Assembly: GCA_000004695.1 (NCBI GenBank)
Contig: CM000151.3
Coordinates: forward strand, 256,001 to 320,000
Reading direction: 5' to 3'
From: Dictyostelium discoideum
Lineage: Eukaryota
Length of the DNA: 64,000 nt
Each line of letters opens with the position of its first letter. Within the stretch, counting starts at the first letter, position 1. The notes beneath the pieces were generated by a model that was given only the letters and a program-made list of their open reading frames with translations, had not been told where the DNA came from and did not search any database. The position numbers were made by a program, and so were the translations under genes. Below, piece after piece: positions 2,017-26,272 of the stretch.

Positions 2017-3749
2017 ATGTCAACAAGTAAAAAAATTAAAACAGATAATAATAAAATATTACAAGATGTGATTGATTATGAAATTTTAAAATCTTTAATA
2101 AATTATTTATTAATCAGCAAAAATAATAAAACAAATTATAATAATACTATTAATCAATATAAAATTAATAAATTTTATTTAAATAGAAATGAAATATTAA
2201 ATTATATATTAGTTTCAAAAAAGTGGTATAATTTTATATCATCAACAATATCAAATAATATTATTGATAATAAATCATTTGAACATTGGTTAAAAATTAA
2301 TTATAATAAAAATAAATCATTTATTGAAAATTACAATAACCAAAATCAATATGATAAAAATAATTTAATTTTTAATGACAAAGAAGATAATCAAAATAAA
2401 ATTAGTTTTAATAAAGAGTTTTCAATTATAAAAATCAAAGAATCAATAATCAATGATTATTTTAAATTCAATTTATTTTTAGATGATATTACAATTGATG
2501 ATTTTAAAGAAATTAAAAATAAATTTGAAAATAATCAATTACTTTATAATAGAATTGTAGTTAATGTTAAAACTGGTTATGAAGGGAATCAAGACGATAG
2601 TATTTTATTCGAAATACATGAATATATATCAAATGAAAATTCAGAAAACATATCAAATTTATTTAAAATATTAGAATTAAATTATAATTATTTGGAAATT
2701 GAGGGCTATAATCCAAGCTCTGAAGAAGATGATGATGAAAGTAATAAGAAATGTACTGAATTATATTTAAATAATTTATCAATTGCTGGTGTTGATAGAG
2801 ATGTAGGTGAAGATGAAGAAACAGTAAAGATATTCAAAATTTTCAAAGGTAAAAATTTAATTTATGATGGATCTGATGTTGCTTGTGATTGTCCAACACA
2901 TGTCGATTATTCAGCATTATTTGATCCAAATAATTCAGGTCAACAAGTTGAATCAATTAAAGTACAAAATAGATTAGATGGTGGTGAATATGTCGAAGCA
3001 CGTCATTTAATCAAAGTTAATCAATTTGAAAATTTACATTCAATTACAATACCAATTAATTCATTTCAAATATTATCAAACCTATCTGAAGAAATGGGAT
3101 TTAATAGTTTCTATAGTAATAGTACAGATTCAGGTAATTCAGAAAATATGAAATCCGAATTAAACCAAATGATTAATTCATTCATTACAAGTAAATCTTT
3201 AAAGAATTTAAATATATCATCCATAGAAAAAGAAGATTCAATTTATAGTGATGATTATGATGATGATGAAACTTTTGCTAATAATATTAATGAAACTATA
3301 GAATCATTTTCAAATTCATTTATACCATTATTTTCAGAATCAAATACATCAATTGAAAGAATTGAATTTGATTGTTGTGGTTTATTAAATATTAATACAT
3401 TTTCAAATTTATTAAAAAACAAATCAATTAAATATTTATATTTATATGATAATAGTGATTTCATTGTTTACTCTTCAAAACAAACTGGTCGTGGTGGTAA
3501 TGATTTACATAAAGAACCTATTTCAATTAATCAATATTTATTTGATAATATATTTTCATCGCCATTAACATCAATTAGACATTATAAAATTAATATCAAA
3601 GAATCAAATCAATTCAAATTAATATTTAATTTAATATTAAATAATATTTTTAAATTACAATTATATTCATTAATATTTGAATTAAATGAAAATGAGTTAG
3701 TTGGTGAATTTGTTAAAGAATTTAAAAATTTAATAAATAATATTTCAAT

Positions 3750-3786
<37 letters not shown>

Positions 3787-3915
3787 AAAGAATCAAATAT
3801 AAATTTAAAAGAAATTAAAATTAAAATCGGAGATGATGAATATATTCCTGAATTAAATAATATTAATAATCCATATTTCACAACAGTAATAAAGAAATTA
3901 CCAAAAAAAAATTAA
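2017..3915 (+). CDS. Tandem-family paralogue (632 aa): MSTSKKIKTDNN... protein with F-box-like N-terminus (candidate), LRR-like conserved blocks, acidic and polyQ cassettes
   Basis: Intact ORF. Conserved blocks shared with the other array members: DPxNSGQQVESIKV, EARHLIKVNQFENLHSITIPINSFQILSNLSEEMGF, NMKSELNQMINSFITSKSLKNL, SFxPLFSExNTSIERIEFDC, INTFSNLLxNKSIKYLYLY, PLTSIRHYKI, FNLILNNIFKLQLYSLIFE, NPYFTTVIKK. Confidence 0.8.
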
Positions 3916-4279
3916 ATAAATAATATTGGTTAATGAAAATTAATTATTATAAATAGTTTTAATAAAATTTTATTATTATTATTGGTTTTTATTGGTATTA
4001 TTATTTTTTTTTAATTTTTTAATTATTAACCATTTAGATATTAATAAAAAAAAAAAAAAATTTAAGCCCCAATTTAATTGAAAAAAAAAAATATATTTTT
4101 AAAAATATCTTTTTTTTTAGATATTAATAAAAAAAAAAAATAAAAAAATAAAAAAAAAAAAGTTTTTTTGGATAATTTTGAGAGAAAAAAAAAAAGTGAA
4201 GCTTTCATTTTTTTTTTTTTTTTTTTTTTGCTTAAAATTCATCATTCTAAAACACACTTTATTATTTAAACAAATAATA

Positions 4280-6361
4280 ATGCCAAAAAATAAAAAAATA
4301 AAAACAGATAAAAATAATAAAATATTTCAAGATGTTATTGAATTTGAAATTTTAAGATCAATAATCAATTATTTATTAATCAGCAAAAAAAAAAAAAAAA
4401 ATAATAATTATAATACTAGTAGTCAATATAAAATTAATAAATTTTATTTAAATAGAAATGAAATATTAAATTATATATTAGTTTCAAAAAAGTGGTATAA
4501 TTTTATATCATTAACAATATCAAATAATATTATTAATAATAAATTATTTGAATATTGGTTAAAAATTAATTATTACAATAAATCATTTATTGAAAATTAT
4601 AATAATCAAAATAAATATGATAAATATAATTTATTTTTCAATAACATAGAAGATTGCAAAAATAAAATTAGTTTTAATAAAGAGTTTTCAATTATAAAAA
4701 TCAAAGAATCAATAATCAATGATTATTTTAAATTCAATTTATTTTCAAATCATATTACAATTGATGATTTTAAAGAAATTAAAAACAAATTTGAAAATAA
4801 TCAATTACTTTATAATAGAATTGTAGTTAATCTTGAAACTGATTATGGTAGCGATGATGATGATATTTTATTTACAATACATGAATATATATCAAATGAA
4901 AATTGGGAAATCATATCAAATTTATTTAAAATAATAGAATTAAATTTTCATTTTTGGTTAGGTGAAGGTTATCAACCAAAATCTGAGGAGGAGGAGGAGG
5001 AGGAAGAGGAGGAGGAGGAGGAAGATCATCATGATACTGATGAATGTTGTAGTCCAAAATCTGAGGAAGACGATCATGATGAACATTGTAGTCCAAAATC
5101 CAAAGAGGATGATGATCATGACGAAGGTTGTCACCCAAAATCTGAAGAGGAGGAGGAGGAGGAGGAGGATGATCTTGATGATGAAGGTAATAAGAAATGT
5201 ACTGAATTATATTTAAATAGTTTAACAGTTGTTGGGTATGATCAAGATGTAGTTGAAGATGAAGAAACAGTAAAGATATTCAAAATTTTCAAAGGTAAAA
5301 ATTTATTTTATGATGGATCTGGTGATTCAATTGATACGTATACACATGTCAATTATTCAGCATTATTTGATCCAGATAATTCAGGTCAACAAGTTGAATC
5401 AATTAATGTACAAATTGAAACTATTAATGAAGAATTCGTTGAAGCACGTCATTTAATCAAAGTTAATCAATTTGAAAATTTACATTCAATTACAATACCA
5501 ATTAGCTCTTTTCAAATATTATCAAGTTTAGCGAAAGAAATGGGATTTACTAGTTTCTATTATAATAGTAAATCAGAATTTGGTAATTCAAAAAATATGA
5601 AATCAGAATTAAATCAAATGATCAATTCATTCGTTACATGTAAATCTTTAAAGAATTTAAAAATAACATCGGTAAATTTAACAGATTATCATATCAACTA
5701 TGAAGGTTATTATGATGGAAATGGAGATCTTGAAATTTTTGCTAATAAAATAAATGAAACTATAGAATCATATTCAAATTCATTCCAACCATTATTTTCA
5801 GAATTAAATACATCAATTGAAAGAATTGAATTAGATTGTATGCGTTTATTAAATATCAATACATTTTCAAATTTATTAAATAATAAATCAATTAAATATT
5901 TATATTTGTATGGTGATAGTGATTTCATTGTTTACTCTTCAAAATCAAGTGGTTATGGTGGTGGTAGTGAATTACATGAAGAATCTATTTCAATTAATCA
6001 ATTTTTATTTGAAAATATATTTACATCACCATTAACATCAATTAGACATTATAAAATTTGTTTCAAATTATCAAATCAATTAAGATTAATATTTAATTTA
6101 ATTTTAAATAATATTTTCAAATTACAATTATATTCATTAATATTTGAATTCGATGAAAACAAATTAGTTGGCGAATTTGTTAAAGAATTTAAAAATTTAA
6201 TAAATAGTATTCCAACTCAAATACAACAAAAATCAAATAACATAAATTTAAAAGAAATTAAAATTAAAATTGAAGATGATGAATATATTCCTGAATTAAA
6301 TAATATTAATAATCCGTATTTCACAACAATAATAAAGAAAATAGAAAAAAAATATGATTAA
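4280..6361 (+). CDS. Tandem-family paralogue (~693 aa from MPKNKKIKTDKNNKIF). Carries an expanded acidic cassette with (GAG)n poly-E and His/Cys-containing repeats HDTDECCSPKSEEDDHDEHCSPKSKEDDDHDEGCHPKSEEEE.
   Basis: ORF 4178..6361, but the upstream part (MREKKKVKLSFFFF...) is poly-T low complexity. The paralogue-conserved start is ATG 4280-4282, preceded by the ...aaacaaataata motif. Confidence 0.8.
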   Translation: MPKNKKIKTDKNNKIFQDVIEFEILRSIINYLLISKKKKKNNNYNTSSQYKINKFYLNRNEILNYILVSKKWYNFISLTISNNIINNKLFEYWLKINYYNKSFIENYNNQNKYDKYNLFFNNIEDCKNKISFNKEFSIIKIKESIINDYFKFNLFSNHITIDDFKEIKNKFENNQLLYNRIVVNLETDYGSDDDDILFTIHEYISNENWEIISNLFKIIELNFHFWLGEGYQPKSEEEEEEEEEEEEEDHHDTDECCSPKSEEDDHDEHCSPKSKEDDDHDEGCHPKSEEEEEEEEDDLDDEGNKKCTELYLNSLTVVGYDQDVVEDEETVKIFKIFKGKNLFYDGSGDSIDTYTHVNYSALFDPDNSGQQVESINVQIETINEEFVEARHLIKVNQFENLHSITIPISSFQILSSLAKEMGFTSFYYNSKSEFGNSKNMKSELNQMINSFVTCKSLKNLKITSVNLTDYHINYEGYYDGNGDLEIFANKINETIESYSNSFQPLFSELNTSIERIELDCMRLLNINTFSNLLNNKSIKYLYLYGDSDFIVYSSKSSGYGGGSELHEESISINQFLFENIFTSPLTSIRHYKICFKLSNQLRLIFNLILNNIFKLQLYSLIFEFDENKLVGEFVKEFKNLINSIPTQIQQKSNNINLKEIKIKIEDDEYIPELNNINNPYFTTIIKKIEKKYD

Positions 6362-6845
6362 AAAAAAAATAAAAAATAAAAAAAAAATAAAAAAGTGAAA
6401 TAATTTTTTATTTTTATTTTTTTTTTTTAAATAAAGATGTGGTTTCTCAATATTGAGAAGTTTTTTATTTTTTTTTTGAAAATTCTTTTTTTTTTTTTCC
6501 ATTATGGGAGGTCAATTTTTTTTCCAATTTTTTTTATTTTTTTTTATTTTTTTTTTTTATTTTTTTTTTTTAAATCGAATTTTTTACTTTTTTTTTATTT
6601 TTTTCTTTATTTTTGGTAAACATAAAAAAAGAGATATCAAATAGAAAAAAAAAAAAGTTATAAAAAAAAGAGAAATTAATTGTAATCATTTATTAATTAA
6701 ACATAAAGTTATTTTTTTTTTTTTTTTTTTTTTTTTATTCCAATTAATCCCATTTTTATTTTTCATAATAATTTTTATTTCCTTTTTAAAGTCTCATAAA
6801 AAAAAAAATTTAGAATTTGTTGGTCACTCTTTATAATTTAAACAA

Positions 6846-8050
6846 AAAATAATAATAATATCAACAAGTAAAAAAATAAAAACAGATAATAAAATATTTC
6901 AAGATCTGATTGATTTTGAAATTTTAAGATCCATAACCAATTATTTATTAACTAGCAAAAAAAAAATTAATAATAATAATAATATTAATAATATTAATAA
7001 TTTAAATAATAATAATATTATTAATCAATAAAATTAATAAATTTTATTTAAATAGAAATGAAATATTAAATTATATATTAGTTTCAAAAAAGTTGTATAA
7101 TTTTATATCATTAACAATATCAAATAATATTATTAATAATAAATCATTTGAACATTGGTTAAAAACTAATTATAATAATAATAAATCATTTATTGAAAAT
7201 TATAAAAATCAAAATCAATATGATAAAAATAAAATATTTTATAGCAAAGAAGATTATAATCAATATAAAATTAGTTTTAATAAAGAGTTTTCAACTATAA
7301 AAATCAAAGAATCAATAATCAATGATTATTTTAAATTCAATTTATTTTTAGATAAGCTTACAATTGGTGATATTATAGATATTAAAAATAAATTTGAAAA
7401 TAATCAATTGGTTTATAATAGAATTGTAGTTTATATTAAAACTGATGATGATTGGTTTCCATAATGTGATAATTTATTAAAATATTTAAAATACACGAAT
7501 ATGTATCAAATGGAAATTCAGAAATCATATGAAATTTATTTCAAATATTAGAATTAAATTATGGTTTTAGGTTGCGTAATGGCTATGATCCAAATCTGAA
7601 AGGGTATATTATGATGATAAAGGTAATAAGAAATCAACTGCTGAGTTATATTTTAATAATTTATCAATTGCTGGTAATAGATTTGCAGATGAAGATAACA
7701 AAACAGTCATGGTATTCAAAATATTCAAAGGTAAAAAATTATTTTATAATAAAACTTGTAGATATAGGTCAACACATGTCAATTGTTCATCATTATTTGG
7801 TCCAGATATTTCAGGTCAACAAGTTAAATCAATTGATTTATAAATTCGGTTTGGGAATTTGTTTATGAATTTAAAAATTTAATAAATAATATTTCAATTC
7901 AACAAAAACAACAACAAGAATCAAAACATAAATTTAAAAGAAATTAAAATTAAAATTGTAGTTGATAAATATGAAAAATTTCAAGAACTAAATTATTTTA
8001 AAAATCCATATTTCGCAATAGTAATAAAGAAATTACCAAAATGGTGGTAA
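6846..8050 (+). pseudogene. Decayed copy of the tandem family: family promoter motif present but ATG mutated (ATA), multiple stops and frameshifts, internal deletions
   Basis: tcactctttataatttaaacaaaaaataataataatATCAACAAGT at ~6836. ORF 7093..7464 encodes YNFISLTISNNIINNKSFEHWLK...NRIVVYIKT. Downstream fragments GNKKSTAELYFNNLSIAG, SGQQVKSID and NPYFAIVIKKLPKWW-stop lie in shifted frames. Confidence 0.75.
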
Positions 8051-8271: not shown

Positions 8272-9460
8272 TCAATTAGGTCCATTTGAACAAAGTCTCA
8301 TTGTTTCTTTAATAAAGGCAACGATATAAGGGGCATTTTGTTTATGATTGAAATTGACATATTCATCATCTTTGACAGCTTTTTTAATTTCTAGATATGC
8401 AATCTCTTGAGGTTCTGGACGATTACATAATTGTAAAATTACCCAATTCATTGTGATTGTAACTGTACCAATGGCTGGTCCAAAAATATCAAAACAAATT
8501 TGATTGATTTTCATTGTATCTTCTTTAGTGATTTCATTTAATCCATATTCAATTAACAAATCATCCATTAAATCTCTTGGTTTACTTGGATCAATTGACT
8601 TAAAATGATTTTCATTTTGACTACTAATTATTTGTCTAACGATATCGCAACCTTTTAATCTTCTAGTAAAGAACCAATCATAAAGTGGTGAGAAAATTTC
8701 AAAACAATCAAATGCAGTTAGTTTTGAAAGATTACCAAAAACATGTTCAACTGCATTACCAATAGTTCTTGACAAGCCACTTTCAACTGATAAATCTTGA
8801 TTAAACATATATTTGAATAACATTGAACAAGCATATCCTTGAATATGTCCTTTTGGATAAAACTTAAAATAATTATTTAATAAATTAATATTAATAATTT
8901 TAATTGTAATTATTATTTCTTTAAAAAAAAACCTATAATTTCATTATTATTCGAAATTTTTTCAAGTGAATCAATAAATTCAATTGCTTTTTCTTCCATT
9001 AATTTTTTAGATGTATGAACTCTTAATTATTAAGAAACACTTGATTTTGCTCTTTTCCATTCGTCATCAGATGAGCTCATTACACCTAATCCATTACTTG
9101 AAGCATATCTCCAACCTGGAACTAAAAGTGATGGTTTGTAAAGGAAATTTTCATCTTTTTGAAAATACTTTACATCATAATTTGAGACAAATAAAAATAA
9201 TCTTTCTCCAATCCATGCTCTTACAATTAATTCATGTTCTTGAATTTTGAATAATTCCCAAAATCTAATTTGAACAACATTTCCAAGAATAGGAAATGCA
9301 ATTGGTCCACTTGGAGATTTTGTATGAATTTTCTTATTTTTTTTAACCTTTTTTTTTTTTGTAAAGAATTAATTAATTAATTTTAATTATTTCTAAAATA
9401 TATAAAATTAAATACATACAAAATCTTTTACCAAGAAAAGTATAATTAGAATAATAAAAC
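8272..9460 (-). pseudogene. Cytochrome P450 remnant. N-terminal anchor and Pro-rich hinge (PSGPIAFPILGN), WKRAK motif, I-helix-like GPAIGTVTIT and K-helix ETMRL are present. In-frame TAATAA (plus 9036-9041) sits after ...KSSVS. No PERF or heme-binding Cys region is present before the gene ends at 8272.
   Basis: Minus-strand translation of 9340..9040 gives KNKKIHTKSPSGPIAFPILGNVVQIRFWELFKIQEHELIVRAWIGERLFLFVSNYDVKYFQKDENFLYKPSLLVPGWRYASSNGLGVMSSSDDEWKRAKSSVS. ORF 8272..8823 gives ...DIFGPAIGTVTITMNWVILQLCNRPEPQE...VAFIKETMRLCSNGPN-stop. Introns with GT..AG at 8863-8932. Only AT-rich non-coding DNA follows until the family pseudogene at 8050. Confidence 0.6.
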
Positions 9461-10129
9461 ATTAACTATTTCCATTTCTCTTAATAATATAGTATTACTT
9501 TTTTTTTTTTTTCTTAACAATTTTTTTTTTTTTTTTCAAATATACTTAACAACAATTTTTTTTAAATGGAAGGTTTATTTTTGTTTTTATCTTTTATTTA
9601 TTTTTTTATTTTTTTATTTTTTATGAATTAATCACCAACAATTAATTGGTGAGTCGATTAATTAAAAGATCAATTACAGGTAAAAAAAGATAATCTGAAA
9701 AATAAAAAAATTTTAAGTGGTTCAATCACAAATTTTATTACTAAAAAAAAAATTAAAAAAAGTTAAACCTTTTTTTGACTTTTTATAAAAAACAAAAATG
9801 ATATTATAAAAAAGGTGTGGGTAATTAATTTAAATTAAAAAAACTAAAAAAAAAAACAAAAAATAAAAAAAACAAAAATAAAAAAAAACAAAAAATAAAA
9901 AAAAACAAATTTTACCCCAAAATTAAGATCTTACAAGTGGTGCATTCCAATAAAATTTTTTTTTTTTTTTTTTTTTTGAATGATTATCTGTTGGCAATTG
10001 TCAAAATTTTTATTAAATGGTGGTTATTTAATTTAAAGGAAAAAATAAAATAAAATAGATAAAATAAAAAATGGTGGTTATTTAATTTAAAGGTAAAAAA
10101 AAATATTACTTAATTAAATATTTCGAAAG

Positions 10130-10160
<31 letters not shown>

Positions 10161-10224
10161 CTTAATTAAATAATTCATTTCAATAGTTACAAGTTTTATA
10201 ATAAATATATAATTGAAATCTAAA

Positions 10225-13200
10225 ATGATTGAAGGAAATTTTGAAAAAAACAATGATAACCAAGTTGCAATAATTGGTCTTGGGCTAAGATTACCAGGTA
10301 ACTCGGGATCTCCTTTAGAGTTTTGGAAAAACTTGCTTGGTGGTTTTGATGGAATTGTTGATTCTAATGAAAGGTAAAAAAAAAAAAAAAAATTTAAAAA
10401 ATAAATAAATAAAAAATTAGAATTATAAAAAAAAAAATAAAAATAAAAAAAAAAATAAAAATAAAAATAAAAAAAAGTGATGGCGACTCACCTCTAACAC
10501 ACCATATTTTTTTTTATTTTAATTTTTTTCTTTTTTTTCATTTTCATCACCGTTGTCTTCATTTTTTTTTTTTTTTTTTAAATTATTATTTTTATTTATT
10601 TAGATGGAGCGACACATTCCATAGTATGGGAGAAATCTCAAATAAGAATGCAGGATTAATTGACTTGGAAGAGAATTGGCATTCTTTTGAGCCATTGTTT
10701 TTTGGGATCAATCCAACCGATGCTAAACAAATTGATCCACAAATTAAATTAATGTTAAAGTTAACATGGGAAGCATTTGAAGATGCATCAATTGATCCTT
10801 TAAAACTCAGAGGAACAAATACTTCTGTTTTTGTTGGTGCCGCAAATACTGATTATTCTTTTATTAATTTCGAATAAAATGAAGCGCCAATCAATGTTTT
10901 TAATGGTACTCTCAGCGCATTTGCAAATAGAATATCATATTGTTTTGATTTACGTGGTACTTCATTAACAATTGACACTGCATGTTCATCATCATTAAAT
11001 GCAGTTCATTTAGGATATGAATCAATTGTTAATGGTAAATCAAATTACTCTGTAGTAGCTGGTTGTAATATATTATTAAGTAATTATTATTATAATATTA
11101 GTAGCACACACATATATATAAAATAGTTTTCATATTTCTAATATTTTATTTTTATTATTATTATTATTCTAAAAAAAGATCCATATATTACTAGATCATT
11201 TCATTCAATTAATATTACAGGTAAATCTGGTAGATGTAATTCATTTGATGAATCTGCTGATGGTTTTGTACGTTCAGAAGGTGTTGTTGTATTAATTTTA
11301 AAAAGATTATCACTTGCAATTCAAGATAACGATCAAATTTATTGTGTAATGAAAGGAAGTAGTTCAAATGTAGATGGTACTTTTAAGAAAACAAACTTTT
11401 TTGCACCTTCAAAAAGTGCACAATCAACTAATATCAAAAATGCATTTTTATCATCTAATGGTGCAGTGAAATATCAAGATATTGATTTCTTTGAATTACA
11501 TAGTACAGGTACACAAGTAGGTGATCCAATCGAAGTTGAAGCTGTTGCTGATATTTTTAAAAATGTTAAACAAGAACCATTATTAATTGGATCAGTTAAA
11601 TCAAATATTGGTCATCTTGAACCTGCATCAGGTGTAGCATCATTAGCAAAAGTTTGTTTAATGTTTAAACATCGTCAATTTGTAAAGAATATCCATTTCA
11701 ATAACCCAAATCCAAATATTAAATTCAAAGAATGGAATGTTAAAGTATGCACAGAAACAACAGCATTCCCAGATAGACAAGTATCAATGGCAATCAATAG
11801 TTTTGGTATAACTGGTTCAAATGCATGTGTTTTATTGTCTGAATATATTAAACCTTCAGAATTAAAAAATCAAACATCCATGAAATTAAATGAAAAATCA
11901 AAATTATTAATACCAATATCAACCAACTCAAAGAAGTCACTCGAACAATTCAAATCAAAACTACTTGAAGAAATTGATACATACTCTGAAAGCTTAACTT
12001 TTGAAGAGTTTGCAATGTTCCAAGTTTATTCAAAAACAACCAAATTATCACAAAGATCAGTTTTAATTGGTAATGATTGGAATGATTTAAAAATTAATAT
12101 AAATGAAATTATTTCAACAAAAAATAATAAATCTGGTAATATTATCAAATCAAATGATATTAATCCACCATTAGTATTTTCATTTTGTGGTCAAGGTCCT
12201 CAATATTCAAAAATGGGTTTAGATTTATATGAAAATGAACCAATATTTAAACAATATATGGATTTATTAGATTCAATACTATTTAAATATTATGGATATT
12301 CAATCATTCAAAAACTAAGATCAATTAATGATGATCCAATTCTAATTAATGAACCAATATTAGCTCAACCATCTATATTTATGATTCAAATATCATTATA
12401 TAAATTATATTTGCATTGGGGAATCACACCATCAATAATAGTTGGCCATAGTTTAGGAGAAGTAGCCAGTGCATTTTGTTCAGGTATGATTGATTTAGAA
12501 ACAGCATGCTTCGTGATATATAAAAGAGCAATCATTCAAAATAAAACCAATGGATCTGGAAGACTTTTAGCAATTGGTTTAAATCTTGAAGAATTCTATA
12601 ATCAATTTTCAAAGGAATATCCAGAAATTGAAATTTCATGTTTTAACTCACCATCATCAATCGTTGTATGTGGTAATGAACATGATATATTAAATATTTC
12701 AAAATCATTAAAAGAGAAACAAATATTCAACTCTTTATTAGGTACACCATCAGCATTTCATTCATCAAAACAAGATATAATCAAAGATGAAATTATAGAA
12801 TCAACCAATCATATCCGATCAAGACCACCTTCTATAACAACATTTTCAACAGTCACATCAAATAAATTCGATAAAAATACACCTTATAATTCAAATTATA
12901 TATTTGACAATTTAAGAAAGCCAGTATTATTTCAACAAACCATTGAAAACATATTCAAACATATTGAATCAAATGATTTAGGTAATTCAGTAATATTTTT
13001 AGAATTGTCACCTCATCCAACTTTAAACCATTATGTTAAAGAAATGATTCCAAAGAATTCAAATTACTTTTTAAACAAAGATTCAATAAGTGTATTATCA
13101 TCAATAAATAAGAAAAAAGAAGATATCAACGAAATTCAATCAACAATTTCACAACTTTATTGTTTTGGTTACAATGTCGATTTTAGTGCCCAATTTAAAT

Positions 13201-16200
13201 CGGAAATAACATCAAATTCATTCAAGAAATGCTCATACATAATACCACATTATCAATGGGATGAATCATTATTTTGGAAAGAAGGTATTTCATCAATAAA
13301 TAATAGAAAGAATGGAGTATCAATAAATCAACTTGGTAATAAAAATGAATCATCACCACATATATCATATACATCATATATCGATATTAAAGAAGAACCA
13401 TTTAGATTCTTAAAAGATCATCAATTTCGTGGTAAATCAATTTTCCCAGGAGTTGGTTATTTGGATATTATTTTAAAACTTTTCCCAAATCAAGATTTAA
13501 CCATACCACTTTTAGAATTTAAATCACAATTTATATTATCTGAAGGTGTAAAAAAAACTCTTACAACCAATCTCTACAAAAGTGCAAAGAATGAATATAG
13601 AGCAACATTTAATTTTAAAGATCAAACAAGTGGTAAGTGGGTTCAATCTGCAAATAGTAGAATTTTAATGAAAAGTTTAGATGTAACAGTTAAAAAAGTT
13701 GATATTCAATCAATACGTGATCAATGTAATTGGTCAACTTTGAAAAGAGATCAATTATATAACTCAATTAAAAACTATTCAAACATTTCAATATTAGAAT
13801 CATTTCAAAGAATTGAAGAAGCTTCATATGGTGATAATAGATGCCTGTGTAAAATTTCATTGGATCCAACTTCAAGCTATGATAATGAATCATTTTTAAA
13901 TATTTGCATTATTGATACATGTATACATCCATGTATTTTCTTTGATAACCCAGCTTCGTCTGTTTTTGAAAGAATTGAACATTTAAAAATTTATTCTTCA
14001 AGTGTTCCATTAACTGCAGAAGATAGAGTGAAGCAACAATACGTTTACTGTTATGTTGAACTTATTAAACAATTTAGTGATTTTATGTATTTAAAAACAA
14101 CTTGTTTCTTAAAAGATGGTACTGTTCTATTACATTCTCCATTGGTAACAATTGCATCTACACTATCAACAAAAAATGAAATTGATATTGAATGTCCAAA
14201 CAATCAATTATTTTCACAATGTCTTCAACCAAAAGATTCAATTTTACAATCACCATTAATATTGAAAGAATATTTTAATCAACAACTTCAACTTCAACAA
14301 TCAAATATCATTTCAATATCTACTCTATCATCATATCTTTTTTCCACATTAAAGAAAATATTAAATAACCTCACCATTGATGAATTTCAAAATGATTCAC
14401 TTGAACAGTTGATTGAAAAATATTCATATATCTTGGAAGAAGTTCAAGAAGTTGGTACTATCAGATCCAATTTAATCCTCTTAACAATCAACTTTTTATT
14501 AACACATCACAAACATATTGATCAAAACCAAGTTTCAAACTTTCTCTTGAATAACATTCCAAACGAATTATTAGTTGTTGATAATATTGTTTCAAATAAA
14601 GGTATTTCACATATTGGTATTTATCAACATCAATTAATTTTAGATATAATTTCAAAATCAATTATTCCAATCGTAAATGAAAAAATAGTTTTTAGAATTT
14701 TAGAAATTGGATGTGGTGTTGGTGAATTAACTAAACTAATCAATGATAAATTAGAATCAATTTTAAATGATAATCCATCATATAACATTGATATAGAATT
14801 TGTATTTTCAGATTATACCGATTCAAAAGTATTATTAATTAAAGAAAGATTGTTCAGTTCAAAAAAGAGTTGTTTCTTTAAAATTATTGATTTAAACAAA
14901 CAATTACAAGAACAATCATTTTCACCATCTTATTATGATTTAATTATTCTATCAAATACAACAAATCAAATTAAAGATATCAACACATCAATTTCATTTG
15001 TAAATGAAATTTTAACTCCAAACGGTCATTTATTAATTTTAGATACAAATTTCATTCAAACATCAATAGATGAAGATTATTATTTAGAAAACTACAAACA
15101 ATGGTTATCATTTAATTATTTAAATTCTGGTAGTGGTGCAATGAAACTAAATCAATGGAATCAATTATTAATAAATGATTTGAAATTTAATAATTTCATA
15201 TGTTCAACAGGTGAAATTGAACCATATTTGATTCAAGTTCAAAAATCAAATTTATCAAATTCAATTAATTCAGTTAGTAAAGAGCATACATCAGAATATG
15301 ATCAAATTATAATTTTTGGTACTTGTGATGAAATTAATATTGGATCTTCTTTCTATGGCTTGGTTCCAATAGCAATAAATTCAATTGATAAGTTTAAAGA
15401 ACATGTCAAATTACAACAATTAACTGATAAATCATTAATATTATTTATTGAATCATTAAATCTATTAACAGTTGATAATTTTAATCAAGTCTCAATGAAC
15501 TATATAGAAATCAATCAACATTTATTAAAAAATGAAATTTCAGGTTGTAAACATATTTTAATTTCAAGAAATGTAAACTTTGAAACTTCAAACTTATTTG
15601 GATCATCATTAATTGGTTCATTTAGATACTTTTGTGAATTCAATCAATTAAATATATATTCATTTGAATTTGAAGGTAATAATATCCTTAGTGGTGATAA
15701 ATTATTTAATATTATTCAAGAATTATCAAATTCAAGCAAACATTCACAAAATGAATTTTCAATCAGAAGTGATGGTAAAATTTATTATGAAAGAATTAAA
15801 TTAGAATCAAATTTAAAATTAAAATATAAATCAAAATCATATATTGAAAATAAAAATGAATTAGTTTCAAGATTAAAACCAGATTTAACATTTGCATTAG
15901 AAGCGGTATTACCATTGAATCCAAATTTTGTTGAAGTTAAAGTAATGGCAAGTGGTGTTAATTTTAAAGATTTCTTAGTTTATCGTCAATTAATTAATAT
16001 GGCAAATTCAAATGAAAATGGTGATCCTTCAAAACCACAATTTGGATATGAACTAAGTGGAATCGTTACCAAAGTCGGTAAGAATGTGACCAAATTCAAA
16101 GTTGGTGATCATGTAATGGGAGGTGCTTTTCATACATTTTCATCAAGTGTTCATGTAGATCAAGAAAGAATCGAATTAAAACCATCAAACATTTCTTGGT

Positions 16201-17016
16201 TTGAAGCATCACACTCTTTAGTTTATTTAACTTCATATTGTAGTTTATTCGAACTTGGTAGATTGGATTTATATGGTTCAAGTGAAACAGTTTTAATTCA
16301 TTCAGGAAGTGGTGGTATTGGTTTATCTTGTATCGATTTATTACAAGTATATGGATTTAAAGGATATTTATTTGTAACTGTAGGCTCTGAAGAAAAGAAA
16401 CAATTTTTAAAAGATCGTTATGGTGATTTCATCACAGAGATTTATTCAACTAAAAATACAGACTATGAATATTTAATTAAAGAGAAATTAATTGAATTAA
16501 AAGCACCATCTCAAAAATATGGTAGTTTTTCAATGATTTGTGTGGATTTAATTATAAATACTTTATCAGCAGATTATATGTCCTGAATTTTCAAATAATC
16601 ACAACTTTATCCATCGTTCGTCAAATTATAAAATTCATCAAGATACTTTAGGTAAAACAATATTAATAACAGGTCAAGCAGGTCTTTCAGATACAATCAT
16701 AAAATGGATAAGAGAAAAAAGATCAGATTCTATTGAATCAATAATAGTATTATCAAAATCACCAATTAAATTTGAATTAGAAAGAGCAATTGGTAGAATA
16801 AGATCAACAAATTTGAAAATCTATTTTAAACAAGTTGATATTTCAGATGAAAAACTTTTATTAAAATCAATTAATCAATTATTTGAAGAAAATAAAAATA
16901 TTAAACCAATTGAATCAATATTCCATAATGCATTTTCACCAGCAGAATGTGAACCATTAGAAATTGATATGAATCATTTAATTATTGGTTTGATTAAAAA
17001 AAAAAAAAATGAATGA
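10225..17016 (+). pseudogene. Type I iterative polyketide synthase (Dictyostelium pks family), domain order KS-AT-DH-cMT-ER-KR(partial). Three lesions: in-frame TAA at 10875-10877 inside KS; frame change near 16580-16590 between ER and KR; KR truncated at 17016 with no ACP, immediately upstream of the transposon at 17116.
   Basis: Exon 1 10225..10373 ([30 protein letters not shown]...). Intron 10374..10603 (GTAAAA..TTTAG). Exon 2 10604..11079 with KS active site TIDTACSSSL. Intron 11080..11178 (GTAATT..AAAG). Exon 3 11179..16586. AT domain GHSLGE at ~12444. DH motif HQFRGKSIFPGVGYLD at ~13417. Methyltransferase LEIGCGVGELT at ~14700. ER KVMASGVNFKD at ~15940. KR Rossmann motif TILITGQAGLSD at ~16660, in the +1 frame. 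...DYSFINFE-TAA-NEAPINVFNGTLSAFANRISYCFDLRG is continuous KS sequence across the stop. Confidence 0.6.
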
Positions 17017-17115
17017 TCACATCCATTTTTTTTTTTTATATTTTATATTATTTTGTGCAAAATAAAAAAATAAAAAAATACACAAAAAACATATTCCCAA
17101 AAATTCAAATTTGCT

Positions 17116-17245
17116 GTTGTAGGGAATTTTCAATAAAATTTCACTGCCCAGCCAAAAAAAATTTAGGGTCAGTGATTTTTTTTTTTTCACTGTGAAATTA
17201 TCAAAATCACTGACCCTAAATTTTTTTTTTTTTCAAAAAACAAAT
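17116..17245. repeat. Left terminal inverted repeat of the transposon at 17116..19590
   Basis: Matches 55694..55820 in direct orientation and 19480..19590 and 60945..61054 in inverted orientation. Confidence 0.6.
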
Positions 17246-17306
17246 AAAGTTTGTTATTTTTTTGTTTTTAATTATTAATTCCTATTTTAATGGTTAATTA
17301 TTATAA

Positions 17307-17338
<32 letters not shown>

Positions 17339-18712
17339 TTTTTTCTCATTTTTTTTTTCTTTTTTTTTTATTTTCATATTTTCATTTTAGGACAACAAAT
17401 TATCAAACATTAAAGAAATCTAAAACTTCAGAATATTTATCATTTGAAAATAATTTAATTTAAAAGAAATGTGAAGAGTTTATATTATTTGTTATTAATG
17501 AATTACCAAAATTAAAATACTTAATTGGGTATTAATTTCAAAAGATGAAAGAACAAAAGCAGCAAAATTAGATAGTGAAGGTTTCTTTCAAAACAATTCT
17601 AAGTGTTACTCCAGTTGTTATCAATAATAAAAAATAAATAATAATAATAATGTGATATCATCAGCTCAATCTTCACTATCATTAAGTAGTGCATCAACAC
17701 CAATTCCAACTCCATTAAATACTAGTAGTAATAATATTGGTGGTAATACTACTACAAGTGTATCAGTGGGATAATCCCCAACAATTAGGGGTATACCATC
17801 ATCACCAGATCAACAAGTTTTATTCAACGCAAACCATCAGTCGGTGCAATATGATGCCAAAATTAAATTCTTCTTTGAATTGATCAACTGATTTCCTTGG
17901 TAAAGAAAGAGAAAATCATCAATCATCTTCACCTTCATATTCATCATTATCAATATCATCATCATCACAACAGCAACATAATAGTAACAATCATCCAAAA
18001 TCGATTGATGAAGCACCTGAAGTATTATCACCATTTGATATTTTACAATCAAAAGTTAATGCAGAGAATTCTTTATCTTCATCACAAGATTTAAATCAAC
18101 ATAATGTAACAACGGCTAGTCAAATTTTACAAGAAATTAAACCAACTAAAGAATTAACTAAACAAGAAACTGAAGCATGCAATTCCAGAGGAACCAATTG
18201 AAGAATGTAATAAATCAACTACAACCACTGCAATTAAGATCATCTTCTTCATCTTCTTCATCTTCTACAACAACAACAAAAACAACAACAACATCACCAC
18301 CACCACAACAACAATTAGATTCGCCATTACCATTACCAGTTAATATTATTAATATGCCAATGGATGATGATGAACTTATTAGTGATGGTACAATAAGTGG
18401 TGCTTAAACTAATGATGGTATCAATTATTGTACCATCATTAGTTAAAGAATCATCAAGAGAATCATTATTGGCTACAACTATTGATAATTCAACATTATC
18501 AACTACACCATCACCATCTCCAAAATTACCAACTCTTGAAACTGCTAAACCATTGTTACATCATCATCTTCTTCTTCTTCAAACACCACTACTCAAACTA
18601 ATAAAGTTTCTGGTGGTTCTGCTAAAGAAATTTGGACTAAAATTGATCAAAATACTGCACCATCAACTCCATCTAAAATTTTACCAAAAAGATTACCTTC
18701 TCAATCAAATCT

Positions 18713-18713
<1 letters not shown>

Positions 18714-18774
<61 letters not shown>

Positions 18775-18778
18775 TAAT
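18714..18778 (+). repeat. (AAT)n microsatellite, ~20 units
   Basis: Direct read. Inside the transposon at 17116..19590. Confidence 0.9.
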
Positions 18779-19342
18779 TAATTAAATAAATAAACAAAAA
18801 GAATAAATAAATAAAAACAATAAATAAAAAAAAAGATAATAAAATAAAACTACAATCTTAATTGAAAAAATAAATAAATAAATAAATAAATAAAATAAAT
18901 AAATAAAATAAAACTAGTTTTAATAAATCTAAAACTTTGTAAATATGTTTTGAAAAAAAAAAAAAAATTTTTATTTTATTGTTTAACTAAATTTGGTTTA
19001 AAATTCAAATAAAGAACTATCTACTCTAAAAAAGAAACCCTTTTCAAATGATAATTGTTGAACACCATTTCTACAATCACTACCGTCATGAGTAGAAAAT
19101 TACCATTTAAACTAAATTGAATAAATCCACTCGATAACCTGTTGGAAATTAGCTACTTGATGTTTTTTAATTATTATTTATTGTTTATTTGTTTATTTGT
19201 CTATTTATTTATTCATTTATTTATTCATTTATTTATTCATTTATATATTCATTCACTAATAATATTACCTACTTTAAAATTGAAAAAATGAAAATGAAAA
19301 AAAAAAAAAAAAAATTGAAAAAAATTGAAAAAAAAAAAATTG

Positions 19343-19391
<49 letters not shown>

Positions 19392-19479
19392 TCCCCATAT
19401 TTTTAATATTAAATAAAATAATAATTAAACCCAAAAATAAAATTCCCATTTAATAAACTTTATTTGTTTTTTGAAAAAA

Positions 19480-19590
19480 AAAAAAAATTTAAGGGCAGTG
19501 ATTTTTTTTTTCACTGCACAACTGTAGTGAAATTAAATAATAAAATTCACTGCGCTGGGCAGTGAAATTTTATTGAAAATTCCCTACAAC
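19480..19590. repeat. Right terminal inverted repeat of the transposon at 17116..19590
   Basis: Reverse complement of 17116..17245. Ends ...ttccctacaac. Confidence 0.6.
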
Positions 19591-19866
19591 AAAATAAATT
19601 TTTTGCTACCTCTAGTTTTTTTTAATCTATAATAAAAATATAAATATCCAAAATTATTAATTGAAATTTAATTGATTTTTAAATTGACAAAAGAAAAAAA
19701 AAACCGATATCTTGGACATCCAAGACAAAATTTTTTTTTTTTTTTAATTTTTTAATTTTTTTTCTTTTTTATTTTCTGCTTTTTTTTTTTTTTTTTTTCT
19801 TTTAAACAAAAAAACATAAATAAAAATAAAAAATAATAAATAACAAATAAATAATAAACAATTATA

Positions 19867-22800
19867 ATGAATAATGAATATAATGAAATATTATTTTGGA
19901 AAGTTTTTAAAAATAAATATTTATTAAATTATATATTAAAAAATAAATGTTGTCGTAAAAGTAAAAAATTTAAAAATATCACATCAGTAGATTCAATGTT
20001 AAAACATAAATTATATCAACTTTTGATATGTAAATTAAAAGCAGATGAAAATTTAAAATTTAAACATAGAAATTATAAAATCATGAATGAAATAAAAGAT
20101 ATAGAAGTATTCAAAGAGATATATTCATTATTACTTTTTAAAGGTTACCAAGGCTCTGAGGTTTTATTCGAAAAGATTTGGGGTATAAAATCAGTAGATT
20201 TATTTGATTTTCATATAAAATATCATCCAGAAGTATTTCAAACCTATATAGATCTTAAAATACACTCAATCTTCATATATAATCATCCAAAATTAATAAT
20301 AAAGGTTTTAAAATTTTTAGAAGAGTCCATCAATCATAATAAACCATTTACTTTTACCAAAATTGAAAGAAATTTTATCATTATGGAATATTTATATTAT
20401 AAACAACACCGATGCAATAGTGAAGAATTTAAAGAAAAGATGGAAATAATATCTAATATTCCAATATCTTCAACCTCAATACTTCAAAATTCATTTTCAA
20501 GTTCAGATAATAGTGTGGATGTAAATTGGTATCTAAAAAATAAAAAATTAATACCTTTTGGATTTAATAATATTCAAACATCATTTCATTGCTCTAAAGA
20601 AACTTTAAGATATTATTTCTCTCGTATTGGCGAGAAGAGAGATAAAGATATTCAACAATCTGTTTATTGCAAAAATAATTTAAGAATGTTTTCAAACTTT
20701 TGTTCTGACTTTGATTTTGCTATTTCCGACATCTATGAATGTATCTCTTCATCTATCAATTCAGTTTTATTATATTTTAAATTGTATTATTGCAACTATC
20801 ATGAATTTAGTAAATCAAAAAGTATACCAACATCGATTCAAACTCAAATTGATATAATAATTGGAAATAGTAAACATAGTGATTATAATGAATATCAATC
20901 AATTAAACAATTATTTCAACTATTTATTAATGAAACTAAATCTAATGTTTTATATGCATGGTATTTAAAAGAATATAATGAACCAATTGACACCATTCGA
21001 CTCTGTGAAAAAATTAAACTATTGTTAATATATTTTATGGCAAAAACCTATAGCACCAATATATTAAAGTTTCTATTGAAAAAACATGTAAAAATCAATA
21101 TAACAAAATCAGATTTGGACTATATTGGTGAAACATATCTCAACACTTTATTCAAAAGTAATCAAATAGATAATAACAATATTATTATGTTCTATAAAAT
21201 CTATTCCACACAAAAATCAATCATTATAGAAGATATTGAAGAAAAACCATTAGATGATGTAATATCAACAAAGGAACTTATCGATTTGCCTGAAAAACAA
21301 TTTCAATTAATTCTATTATCGAAATGGAAAGAAATTACATCAAATCTAATTGATAATGATATGATTGTTACAATTAAAGATAAAGAAACAATCGATTGGT
21401 TATCAGATATCGAAACAGGTGGTTGTAGTATTTTAAAAATAAGAAATGCTTTAAATTCAAAATTAAATCAAATGAAACTTGATTTTAGTACATCAGAATT
21501 ATTAGAATATGCAAGAATCAAATTTAAACGAGTAATTCCAATTTTAGATTCAAATAAACAGTTGTGTAATATTCACATTTTACGTACTCATGATGATATT
21601 GTATCATTAATCAATCGATTAAACCAATCAAACTTTAATGATAATGAAGATTTATTTAAATATTATATGATTCAAATTATTCAATTTGGTTCAAAAAATT
21701 CAATTAAATACCTAAGATTAATTTGTGATTCTATTGATGGGTTATTGTTGGACTATCTTGATTGGGGGGTTTTAGTAATGAGAATATTTAATTACGATTT
21801 GAGACTGTTTTATATTAACTCATATATATATGATATTTGGGATGTTTCGGCAGGTTATCATGAAAATGAAAAATTCAAACAATATAAAATACCAACTCAA
21901 CAAACATGTCAAATAATCAATCTCACTAAAATTAAAGTAAATTTCAATAACTTTCCAAATGTAACCTCTTATTTATTTCAAACATTTATTGAACTTTTAA
22001 ATTTTGAAGGTGTACAATTTATTCTTGATAATTTAAATGGTAAAGATTTAAAATTACATGAAAAAGCATTTAAAGATCGTTTTGATCATAGAATCTATAC
22101 ATGCAAATATTTATATAAAGATTTAATTGATATTATTCAGTTTTTAATTGATAGATTCAAAGATGGTCAATTATCATTATCAAATTTATCATTGATATTA
22201 AATTTCTTTTATTTAAAGTTAATTAGAGTCAATAATTTAACAATTGACCAAATTAAAACAGCTCATCAATTAATATCAAATTATATCAAAATAAAGAGTT
22301 CAAAATACACTTCATACTATTATTTAAAAACTTTTTCACCAATCATCGGATCATGTGTAGTCGTTATTGAAGTTCCCTGTGGTAGTTCTTTAAAAGAACC
22401 ATTCTTGAAATATTATATAAATACATCAGTATATACATTCGAATATATATTTACTGATAGAAATAATAAAGATTTAAATCAATTTATCGATTCAACAATC
22501 ATGGACATTGTAAAAGATAACTTTAATATCCAAGTCTCCAAGATGTTAGATTATAATAATCCAAGAGTTAATTTATTTTTACATTATTTCGAAATTGAAT
22601 TAAAATTTAGAAAGGAAAATAAAATCAAAAAACCATTTTTAAAATACCAACTATTGAAATTAATAATTAAAACATTTGATTTAGAATCATTTATTAAATT
22701 AGATAATTTATTACAACAATATGAACAAGAGGATGCTAATGATGATGGTGGACATGAAAATATAATAGGATCTATAGATAAATATAGATCCTATAGATAT

Positions 22801-22956
22801 TATGTCAAACCATTAGCATCTAATATGGTTGAATGGTTTGGTATAATTGTATACAAAGATTATTCAGATTATCAAGATATTATAAATTACTTATTTAATA
22901 AATATAAAAGCCAATTGAAACCATATGTAAATTACTATAAATCAAAAATCTGGTAG
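19867..22956 (+). CDS. Large hypothetical protein (1029 aa), N/K/I-rich with no recognised domain. Its N-terminal EILFWKVFKNKYL motif resembles EILFWKLFRNKAIY in ORF 47584..48540(-).
   Basis: Single long ORF with non-repetitive codon usage. A tandem hairpin plus T-run lies 90-150 bp downstream. Confidence 0.5.
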   Translation: MNNEYNEILFWKVFKNKYLLNYILKNKCCRKSKKFKNITSVDSMLKHKLYQLLICKLKADENLKFKHRNYKIMNEIKDIEVFKEIYSLLLFKGYQGSEVLFEKIWGIKSVDLFDFHIKYHPEVFQTYIDLKIHSIFIYNHPKLIIKVLKFLEESINHNKPFTFTKIERNFIIMEYLYYKQHRCNSEEFKEKMEIISNIPISSTSILQNSFSSSDNSVDVNWYLKNKKLIPFGFNNIQTSFHCSKETLRYYFSRIGEKRDKDIQQSVYCKNNLRMFSNFCSDFDFAISDIYECISSSINSVLLYFKLYYCNYHEFSKSKSIPTSIQTQIDIIIGNSKHSDYNEYQSIKQLFQLFINETKSNVLYAWYLKEYNEPIDTIRLCEKIKLLLIYFMAKTYSTNILKFLLKKHVKINITKSDLDYIGETYLNTLFKSNQIDNNNIIMFYKIYSTQKSIIIEDIEEKPLDDVISTKELIDLPEKQFQLILLSKWKEITSNLIDNDMIVTIKDKETIDWLSDIETGGCSILKIRNALNSKLNQMKLDFSTSELLEYARIKFKRVIPILDSNKQLCNIHILRTHDDIVSLINRLNQSNFNDNEDLFKYYMIQIIQFGSKNSIKYLRLICDSIDGLLLDYLDWGVLVMRIFNYDLRLFYINSYIYDIWDVSAGYHENEKFKQYKIPTQQTCQIINLTKIKVNFNNFPNVTSYLFQTFIELLNFEGVQFILDNLNGKDLKLHEKAFKDRFDHRIYTCKYLYKDLIDIIQFLIDRFKDGQLSLSNLSLILNFFYLKLIRVNNLTIDQIKTAHQLISNYIKIKSSKYTSYYYLKTFSPIIGSCVVVIEVPCGSSLKEPFLKYYINTSVYTFEYIFTDRNNKDLNQFIDSTIMDIVKDNFNIQVSKMLDYNNPRVNLFLHYFEIELKFRKENKIKKPFLKYQLLKLIIKTFDLESFIKLDNLLQQYEQEDANDDGGHENIIGSIDKYRSYRYYVKPLASNMVEWFGIIVYKDYSDYQDIINYLFNKYKSQLKPYVNYYKSKIW

Positions 22957-23157: not shown

Positions 23158-23447
23158 TTTGTTTTTTTTTTTATTTTTATTTTTTTTTTTCTAAGTATGT
23201 TGTTATAAAAGTGTAGTGTTCATATTTATTTTAATTTCTCTTTTTTTTTTGGTGTACACCAAAAAAATAATATAAAGAAATAATAATGTTAACAAAAAAT
23301 AAAAATAAATATTTCAAGATATTATTTTTTTGAAATTTTAAAATCCATGTGTTTTTATTTTTTTTTGTTTTTTTATTTTTTTTTTTTTTAAGTTTTAAAT
23401 ATTTTCATTTTTTTAACTCATTAGTCAGCTCACTCTTACAAATAATT

Positions 23448-25436: not shown

Positions 25437-25454
25437 AAAATAAAACATCAAAAA

Positions 25455-26233: not shown

Positions 26234-26272
<39 letters not shown>

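Follow-up and report, generated by a model that had tools for sequence, protein, structure and literature searches.

The window, by which is meant the whole stretch of 64,000 nucleotides of Dictyostelium discoideum DNA analysed here, contains on chromosome 2 a dead extra copy of pks22, accompanied by a part of the adjoining P450 gene. With a probability of roughly 0.93, positions 8282-17114 represent a non-processed (DNA-level) duplicate of the CYP517A4-pks22 unit of chromosome 4, decayed by one stop codon and two deletions. An initial annotation of this DNA had recognized a type I PKS of the KS-AT-DH-MT-ER-KR type with three independent disabling lesions, and hence a pseudogene. This core of the reading stands and its coordinates check out, but the frame change cannot be treated as a simple one, nor the transposon as the cause of the loss of the tail; moreover, while the decay of the pks gene was correctly seen, the inter-chromosomal duplicate of 10 kb to which it belongs and the neighbouring P450 pseudogene were overlooked. 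Since no complete KS precedes the stop codon, neither the ER nor the KR is complete and no carrier domain is left, no working synthase can be produced from the locus.

Pseudogenes of this kind are ordinary and already catalogued: the five annotated PKS pseudogenes of D. discoideum (Zucko et al. 2007, as cited in PMC9618038) are likewise PKS ORFs of AX4 that contain stop codons. In the pks22 copy, which may be one of the five, the damage includes two sizeable deletions, and the whole locus is a segmental duplicate. The complete repertoire of the species has been given as 40 PKS genes plus five stop-interrupted pseudogenes (PMC9618038).

The closest proteins are pks22 (Q54QD3) and pks23 (Q54QD1) of strain AX4, with an amino acid identity of ~96% once the intron gap is excluded, and the coding DNA of the copy is 96.8-97.1% identical to that of the two genes. 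Both of them, pks22 (DDB_G0284001) and pks23 (DDB_G0283931), lie on chromosome 4, share with the copy the KS-AT-DH-cMT-ER-KR-ACP order and the two introns, and combine this ~97% coding identity with the same divergently oriented CYP517A P450 partner upstream. The copy is distinguished from them by the stop at codon 141, the lack of codons 2013-2122 and 2258-2499, its location on another chromosome and a truncated P450 partner. Intact parents thus occur on the chromosome of 5.45 Mb and the copy on that of 8.48 Mb. As parent DNA for the comparisons, the pks22/23-equivalent genes (L003 and L001) of a second D. discoideum assembly were used.

The pseudogene is read from the forward strand and consists of exon 1 (10225..10373, with the start codon at 10225), exon 2 (10604..11079), which encodes the N-terminal part of the KS and holds the first lesion, and a first part of exon 3 (11179..16580; codons ~209-2012, delimited by Pfam and tblastn) which covers the rest of the KS, the AT, the DH, the C-methyltransferase and the N-terminal half of the ER. 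When applied to three intact relatives, these exon boundaries give exactly their annotated proteins. The first part of exon 3 is otherwise open, and the codon gap list, which extends over 7.5 kb, contains no frameshift beyond the known ones. Pfam recognizes KS, KS-C, AT, DH, MT, an ER reduced to ADH_N and half a KR, with matches to PF00109, PF02801, PF16197, PF00698, PF21089, PF08242 and PF08240. No single uninterrupted frame runs through all of the PKS domains, which are broken by the TAA of codon 141 and by the frameshift at 16580/16581.

The first lesion is a nonsense change of CAA to TAA in codon 141 (10875..10877, forward strand), as found upon alignment with the relatives; the in-frame TAA inside the KS that the initial annotation had reported is therefore confirmed. 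In pks22, in pks23 and in the orthologue from D. cf. discoideum, this codon is a CAA encoding Gln141. The stop lies upstream of DTACSSS, the motif of the KS active-site Cys.

The second lesion, located at 16579..16582 on the forward strand, is the junction of a 332-bp deletion (16368-16699 of the L003 parent) which displays a 2-nt microhomology, TG. Codons 2013-2122 of pks22 are gone and the frame is shifted; the segment removed comprises nearly all of ADH_zinc_N_2, the NADPH-binding half of the ER (residues 2000-2110 of pks22). The long frame closes at the TGA 16584-16586, and the KR sequence goes on in another frame from ~16573/16585. The change of frame at the ER-KR junction (16580/16581, stop 16584-16586) had been properly located before, but it is the scar of a deletion of 332 bp and not a small indel.

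Downstream of this scar, Pfam and tblastn detect a remnant of the KR (16581..16984, forward strand), which corresponds to its N-terminal half (codons ~2123-2257 of pks22) and no longer shares the frame of the sequence upstream. Of the KR of pks22 (2149-2329), only the part up to residue 2257 is kept, and with the nucleotide-binding half of the ER missing neither domain is complete. The third lesion, at 16977..16985 on the forward strand, is the junction of a ~773-bp deletion (17104-17876 of the L003 parent) with an 8-nt microhomology, TTTAATTA; it has taken away codons 2258-2499 (the C-terminal half of the KR plus the ACP) along with the stop codon and the first 45 bp of 3' UTR. The extent of the loss after the break, ~773 bp, comes from the comparison with intact pks paralogues that the initial annotation had proposed. 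The KR frame does end, as it had indicated, at the TGA 17014-17016 without any ACP behind it, but true KR homology reaches no further than 16984, and the ten codons that precede 17016 are former 3' UTR. A tblastn search with 15 close PKS proteins found the C-terminal half of the KR and the ACP nowhere in the 64-kb window, the sequence beyond the transposon included, and the ACP of pks22 (residues 2412-2497) is unmatched throughout it; the suggestion that the missing KR-ACP part might lie from 19590 onwards thus receives no support in the window.

The segment that follows the break (16985..17114, forward strand) aligns with the 3' flank of the parent (17877-18139 of L003), over the interval 46-308 bp beyond the pks22-type stop, and it stops exactly at the terminus of the transposon. 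Because AT-rich low-complexity matches swamp a plain blastn of such short flanks, the homology was assessed by direct alignment: it scores 80.8, whereas 1500 AT-rich segments used as an empirical null score 34.6 +/- 5.2 (maximum 47.7). The flank bears directly on the idea, put forward in the initial annotation, that the KR-ACP tail was taken away by the insertion of the transposon at 17115. The element lies just 130 bp downstream of the break and the homology block ends precisely at its left terminus, which would suit such an explanation; however, these 130 bp are the pks gene's own 3' flank, with the order found in L003 and L001, so that the transposon did not remove the tail. Its terminus (17115) does not abut the end of the gene homology (16984), and at the break codon 2257 is joined, through a clean microhomology, to a position 45 bp past the stop, which places the deletion wholly within pks-derived sequence. 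Removal by the transposon is accordingly very unlikely, and an internal deletion of the tail remains the preferred reading.

The element measures 2.48 kb (17115..19591, without assigned strand) and carries imperfect terminal inverted repeats of ~270 bp, with termini TGTTGTAGGGAATTTTC..., mapped by direct alignment, an automated search for inverted repeats having given only poly-T/poly-A pairs. A transposon adjoining the end of the gene had been correctly noticed, with a start at 17116 that is now corrected to 17115 (end at 19591). No clear direct repeat in the form of a target-site duplication was found on either side of 17115-19591. The gene does not continue past the element: beyond 19591 there is no pks flank, but sequence that matches the locus of strain ACTFIR. 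Blastn revealed related element termini at 55692-55979 and 60712-61055 of the window. On the right, the duplicated block is bounded by the element, whose association would seem to be with this edge of the duplication rather than with the loss of the tail.

With regard to the reality of the lesions, the TAA, the two deletion junctions and the transposon all recur identically at the corresponding locus (L004) of the second assembly, GCA_054883475.1. Identity between this assembly and the window amounts to 99.7%, with a single SNP within the gene, and the 30-mer at the TAA and the 50-mer at the lesion-2 junction are the same in both. No evidence was found for the alternative that the lesions are sequencing or assembly errors in an intact gene, although homopolymer errors are a general risk with AT-rich DNA and, outside the gene, do distinguish the two assemblies in places. 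Identical lesions in a second, separately deposited assembly are not sequencing errors, deletions of 332 and 773 bp cannot result from base-calling, and the missing segments occur nowhere in the 64 kb; the probability left to this alternative is practically nil. The second assembly probably derives from the same laboratory lineage, so that it excludes sequencing error but not a lineage-specific state of the genuine lesions. The wild strain ACTFIR has neither the block nor the transposon at the syntenic locus, where only the right-hand junction, at the right end of the transposon, can be aligned because the left side is rearranged.

It could also be proposed that the locus is still of use, be it through a protein that is truncated or spliced anew or through an RNA that regulates pks22/23. 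The promoter region has been kept, and the automated annotation of the second assembly contains a model of 2426 aa which extends from the pks ATG into the interior of the transposon. This model, however, must skip ~0.9 kb as extra "introns", ends in the transposon and has no Pfam match on record, the codon-141 stop precedes the catalytic Cys of the KS, and no chain can be carried because the window holds no ACP. A residual function is thus extremely improbable, and the locus is better regarded as a plain pseudogene.

Taken as a whole, 8282-17114 constitutes a single block, about 10 kb (about 10.1 kb) in size, copied from chromosome 4 to chromosome 2, of which the left end cuts the P450 gene and the right end touches the 17115-19591 element. 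A single blastn HSP of 8.4 kb joins 8281-16580 of the window to 8005-16367 of L003 at 95.5% identity. The P450 and promoter part lies within this HSP when compared with unit 2 of the tandem P450-PKS pair of chromosome 4 and reaches only 82.5% identity with unit 1; by its sequence, the source is the second unit of the pair, CYP517A4(-)/pks22(+). Both introns, the promoter region, a part of the upstream gene and the 3' flank are co-linear with the parent unit, as in non-processed pseudogenes. The reverse direction, in which the chromosome-4 genes would derive from the chromosome-2 copy, is unlikely because the P450 gene is cut here at the edge of the block.

The P450 fragment (8282..9359, reverse strand), recognized by Pfam p450, blastn and tblastn, is a copy of CYP517A4 and corresponds to CYP517A3P (DDB_G0271224), a published P450 pseudogene (PMC6524965, supplementary file 2). 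It breaks off after ...RLCSNG, where the block ends on the left, and lacks the haem-binding C-terminal ~125 aa; in addition, it contains two adjacent stops (CAA TCA to TAA TAA, ~9027-9032) and has lost 30 nt at one place and 3 nt at another. Its functional relatives CYP517A1 and CYP517A4 (DDB_G0283929 and DDB_G0283933) flank pks23 (DDB_G0283931) (PMC6524965). CYP517A3P lies in the same duplicated block as the pks copy and, like the P450s beside pks22/23, is a member of the CYP517A subfamily; it is a neighbour and not a PKS, was truncated on arrival and gained its two stops later. The intergenic region 9360..10224 (no strand), within the 8.4-kb HSP, is what served the parent unit as divergent promoter region; it was duplicated together with the genes and may also hold the short first coding exon of the P450. 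On the other side of the element, the ORF 19867-22956 is DDB_G0271218 of the 8.48-Mb chromosome, and the block is presently set beside this gene in a multigene-family region of chromosome 2. A tRNA scan found no tRNA gene in the 64-kb window.

The P450-pks unit on the left-hand side in D. cf. discoideum (ACTFIY_012485, L005) belongs to the same clade and is also decayed, with a gene model of 1835 aa that skips parts and a P450 of only 235 aa. As a positional orthologue of the copy it was rejected, its place being the ancestral Sec1/adh_short/P450 position; unlike the copy, it stands beside the Sec1 and adh_short genes and has kept its KR-ACP end, and it represents an independent decay event.

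The substitutions specific to the copy, 32 synonymous versus 36 non-synonymous, correspond to an omega of 0.29 (p = 1e-6 against neutrality) and not to the value near 1 of relaxed constraint. Such a value is unexpected for an old pseudogene. It concerns the age of the inactivation and not the status as a pseudogene, and is open to a caveat of gene conversion: either the lesions are recent, or differences inherited from a functional source were later erased in pks22/23 by gene conversion. That the copy was for long a working third gene of the pks22/23 type on chromosome 2, and died only recently, is accordingly a serious possibility, though held at somewhat less than even odds against a copy that never worked there. 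A recent death agrees with a block that brought along the entire gene together with its promoter region and 308 bp of 3' flank, with an omega not above those of the functional paralogues (0.33 and 0.62), with a branch length of 73 that does not exceed that of pks23 (72) or pks22 (81), and with the lack of any further frameshift in 7.5 kb. Against it, conversion between pks22 and pks23 is likely, as their coding regions are 98% identical versus ~82% for the P450/promoter part, and it can give ancestral, constrained differences a copy-specific look; a mutation bias at synonymous sites of an AT-rich genome may also lower omega. The P450 fragment, dead on arrival, has too few changes (S = 4, N = 8) to calibrate the comparison, and the partner P450 was never complete on chromosome 2.

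A more far-reaching version, in which the copy arrived complete with its own promoter, served as a third synthase until very recently and is, like the block and the element, polymorphic among wild D. discoideum, appears doubtful. The block is absent from ACTFIR, and under polymorphism the copy could be intact in some isolates.

Whatever its age, the history of the duplicate is as follows. Copying started inside the last exon of the P450, hence its truncation on arrival, and took in the promoter region shared by the two genes, all of pks including both introns, and 308 bp of 3' flank. The pks gene may still have worked when it arrived. Afterwards, the copy underwent the change of CAA to TAA at codon 141, the loss of 332 bp at a short microhomology, with the NADPH-binding half of the ER removed and the frame shifted, and, at a second microhomology, the loss of ~773 bp (half the KR, the ACP and the stop codon, with 45 bp of 3' UTR). 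Both deletions may have occurred via replication slippage or microhomology-mediated end joining.

Beyond annotation hygiene, the finding is of little weight. Gene predictors can be misled at this locus, one public annotation being the 2426-aa chimera of pseudogene and transposon, and reads from pks22/23 can mis-map to a copy that is 97% identical; knock-outs or expression probes for pks22/23 are best aimed at the regions deleted in the copy. The locus illustrates the gain and loss of members in the large and fast-evolving PKS family of Dictyostelium, with a P450-PKS unit copied between chromosomes and then eroded by AT-biased C to T nonsense mutations and microhomology deletions. If the copy did work until recently and is polymorphic, it would offer a live example of the turnover of polyketide gene content, possibly begun by a transposon-associated break repaired from chromosome 4.

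The closest proteins to the polyketide synthase (PKS) copy belong to a single 90% cluster, which contains the products of pks22 (DDB_G0284001, Q54QD3) and pks23 (DDB_G0283931, Q54QD1) of Dictyostelium discoideum AX4, both of 2499 aa, together with their orthologues from other strains and from D. cf. discoideum. At the level of the coding DNA, the copy is 96.8-97.1% identical to the two D. discoideum genes. Both pks22 and pks23 are located on the 5.45-Mb chromosome 4, and the ORF found at 19867-22956 of the window corresponds to DDB_G0271218 of the 8.48-Mb chromosome 2 of AX4. In the chromosome-level assembly GCA_054883475.1, the pks22/pks23-type genes lie in two units arranged in tandem, with a period of ~10.4 kb, each made of a P450 gene (minus strand) followed by a PKS gene (plus strand). 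Window 8281-16580 aligns with the second of these units (L003) as a single 8.4-kb HSP of 95.5% identity, including the P450 gene and the intergenic promoter region, whereas the P450 and promoter part of the block shows only 82.5% identity to the first unit; the source of the block is therefore the second unit, with a PKS of the pks22 type. With respect to Q54QD3 and Q54QD1 of AX4, pks22 and pks23 carry each other's exon 1 in GCA_054883475.1 (L002/L003, CM142510.1 4.21-4.25 Mb), protein P0125 combining the pks22 exon 1 with the pks23 body and P0127 showing the reverse combination; the cause is either gene conversion or, in one of the assemblies, an erroneous join within this 98%-identical tandem repeat.

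The G+C content of the window is ~22%. The copy of the PKS gene starts at 10225 and consists of exon 1 (10225-10373), exon 2 (10604-11079) and exon 3 (from 11179), separated by two short introns, and the same exon boundaries reproduce exactly the annotated proteins (2496-2499 aa) of three intact relatives. According to Pfam, the main frame encodes the KS (N, C and C-extension), AT, DH and C-methyltransferase domains and the ADH_N half of the ER, and the first half of the KR domain occurs in a different frame. Three lesions interrupt this organization. The first is the in-frame TAA at 10875-10877, correctly identified in the initial annotation. It occupies codon 141, which reads CAA in D. cf. 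discoideum as well as in pks22 and pks23, and lies upstream of the DTACSSS motif of the KS active site. The second, located at 16580/16581, had been described as a change of frame at the ER-KR junction; the TGA at 16584-16586 indeed closes the main frame and the KR sequence runs on in another one, but the frame change is the scar of a deletion of 332 bp of the parent (L003 16368-16699), a length that, not being divisible by three, shifts the frame. Its junction, where GATTATATG joins TCCTGAATTT, displays a 2-nt microhomology, and the deletion removed codons 2013-2122, which encode almost the entire ADH_zinc_N_2 half of the ER (pks22 residues 2000-2110) as well as the linker between ER and KR. 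The third lesion, at 16984/16985, lies within a shared octamer TTTAATTA and corresponds to the absence of ~773 bp (L003 17104-17876), i.e., codons 2258-2499, the stop codon and 45 bp of the 3' UTR; it affects the second half of the KR (domain 2149-2329) and the ACP (2412-2497). No further frameshift was found in the copy, and the remaining length differences are in-frame and each shared with one or another intact relative.

As stated in the initial annotation, the KR frame ends without an ACP, at the TGA occupying 17014-17016, and nothing PKS-like follows downstream. The comparison with PKS paralogues suggested there was performed by tblastn with 15 close PKS proteins, and no match to the KR C-terminal half or to the ACP occurs anywhere in the 64 kb, the region beyond the neighbouring inverted-repeat element included. 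Sequencing error as the source of the lesions is ruled out by GCA_054883475.1. There the locus (L004), which is not on the contig that carries pks22/23, matches the window with 99.7% identity over 23 kb and shares with it the TAA, in an identical context, as well as the two deletion junctions, the 3' remnant and the element. A single SNP distinguishes the two sequences within the gene, the other differences being almost all in homopolymer length. This assembly probably derives from the same laboratory lineage as the window and is therefore uninformative on natural variation. At this locus, its annotation calls a single gene of 2426 aa (L004 385-8926, equivalent to window about 10225-18774), running from the pks ATG into open frames inside the element, a fusion model best read as an artefact of automated prediction.

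The duplicated block begins at 8282, midway through the final exon of the P450 gene and after the residues ETMRLCSNG, so that the haem-binding C-terminal ~125 aa were never present at the locus. On the right-hand side, window 16985-17114 shows a colinear alignment with L003 17877-18139, located 46 to 308 bp past the pks22-type stop codon, and likewise with the 3' flank of D. cf. discoideum. Gap-tolerant local alignment yielded scores of 80.8 and 71.5, respectively, against a mean of 34.6 (s.d. 5.2, maximum 47.7) for 1500 equally AT-rich 900-nt segments. Homology ends with CAAATTTGC at 17114, and the next base is the first of the 2.48-kb element (17115-19591), with termini TGTTGTAGGGAATTTTC, imperfect arms of ~270 bp and an interior resembling degraded Ser/Thr-rich coding sequence. 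Its terminal region occurs as two more copies or fragments in the window (55692-55979 and 60712-61055), and no clear target-site duplication was seen at 17115-19591. The earlier proposal that this transposon removed the KR-ACP tail has to be abandoned, since the coding sequence is broken by a clean deletion with both ends in pks-derived sequence, and the break is followed by 130 bp of the 3' flank of the gene itself before the element begins. The element rather marks the boundary of the entire duplicated block on its right-hand side, and may have taken part in the duplication.

Past the element (19591), the sequence is not pks flank and matches the syntenic locus of the wild strain ACTFIR (GCA_054859385.1), where homology to the window picks up again at the right end of the element. 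Present at this locus, with 90-94% identity, are the genes of the flanking family and the orthologue of DDB_G0271218, and no PKS, P450 or element occurs within 10 kb. The block and element were thus either gained by the AX4 lineage through insertion or lost from ACTFIR, the exact empty site not being definable because the left side is rearranged. The ACTFIR region (L006, JBTAPF010000011.1 330-352 kb) also differs from the window in gene order and orientation, and a divergence corresponding to 90-94% identity is unusually high for a comparison within a species.

The age of the inactivation was approached from the substitutions unique to each of four aligned sequences over 2127 codons. The copy displays 32 synonymous and 36 non-synonymous changes (omega 0.29; p = 1e-6 versus omega = 1), compared to 10 and 24 (0.62) for the pks23-type gene of unit 1, 20 and 26 (0.33) for the pks22-type gene of unit 2, and 93 and 69 (0.19) for the D. 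cf. discoideum branch. The branch of the copy, at 73 sites, does not exceed in length the branches leading to the functional genes (72 and 81), and neither substitution counts nor branch lengths show any sign of long neutral decay. It is conceivable, at somewhat less than even odds, that the copy died recently, having arrived with the whole gene, promoter and 3' flank and having been functional for most of its history. The counts also fit another explanation, in which much of what looks unique to the copy would be old, constrained variation of the pks22 lineage that gene conversion with pks23 later erased in pks22 itself. Such conversion is likely, judging from sequence identity, because the coding regions of the two genes are 98% identical whereas their P450 and promoter regions reach only ~82%. 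The P450 fragment, dead on arrival, accumulated so few changes (S = 4, N = 8) that it cannot serve as a calibration of the neutral pattern.

Among the P450 genes, CYP517A1 (DDB_G0283929) and CYP517A4 (DDB_G0283933) are full-length in the P450 inventory and CYP517A3P (DDB_G0271224) is listed as a pseudogene (PMC6524965, supplementary file 2). The identifiers of the former two interleave with that of pks23, and DDB_G0271224 adjoins DDB_G0271218; the P450 fragment at 8282-9359 (minus strand), cut at the block edge, is therefore CYP517A3P, and the locus had already been recognised as decayed before this analysis. Besides two deletions, of 30 nt and 3 nt, its damage comprises two adjacent codons, CAA TCA, changed to TAA TAA.

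The PKS/P450 block is located inside a tandemly arrayed gene family, with at least 12 members of ~620-730 aa that have no Pfam domain and show 59-75% mutual amino acid identity (2017-6361, 6824-8040, 23349-34452, 38765-45916, 53490-55472 and 61314-63032). Stops and an internal deletion disrupt the member at ~6824-8040. The G+C content rises to 0.32 at 1001-2000 and 0.35 at 37001-38000, versus 0.13-0.25 around them. The left-hand P450-pks unit of D. cf. discoideum (L005, JBTAPH010000042.1 1.94-1.97 Mb), which adjoins Sec1 and adh_short genes, is also degenerate, with a P450 model of 235 aa and a pks model of 1835 aa with skipped segments; lying ~150 kb from the intact unit and not in tandem with it, it is a case of independent decay and rearrangement within the same clade.

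The core conclusion of the initial annotation, that the gene is a pseudogene, stands. Introns, promoter and flanks are kept, an intact parent is identifiable, and decay proceeded by point mutation and microhomology deletions. The genome of D. discoideum is reported to contain 40 putative PKS genes and five pseudogenes interrupted by stop codons (PMC9618038), along with 13 P450 pseudogenes or partial genes (PMC6524965), and the locus is a textbook non-processed pseudogene within this known picture of the organism.
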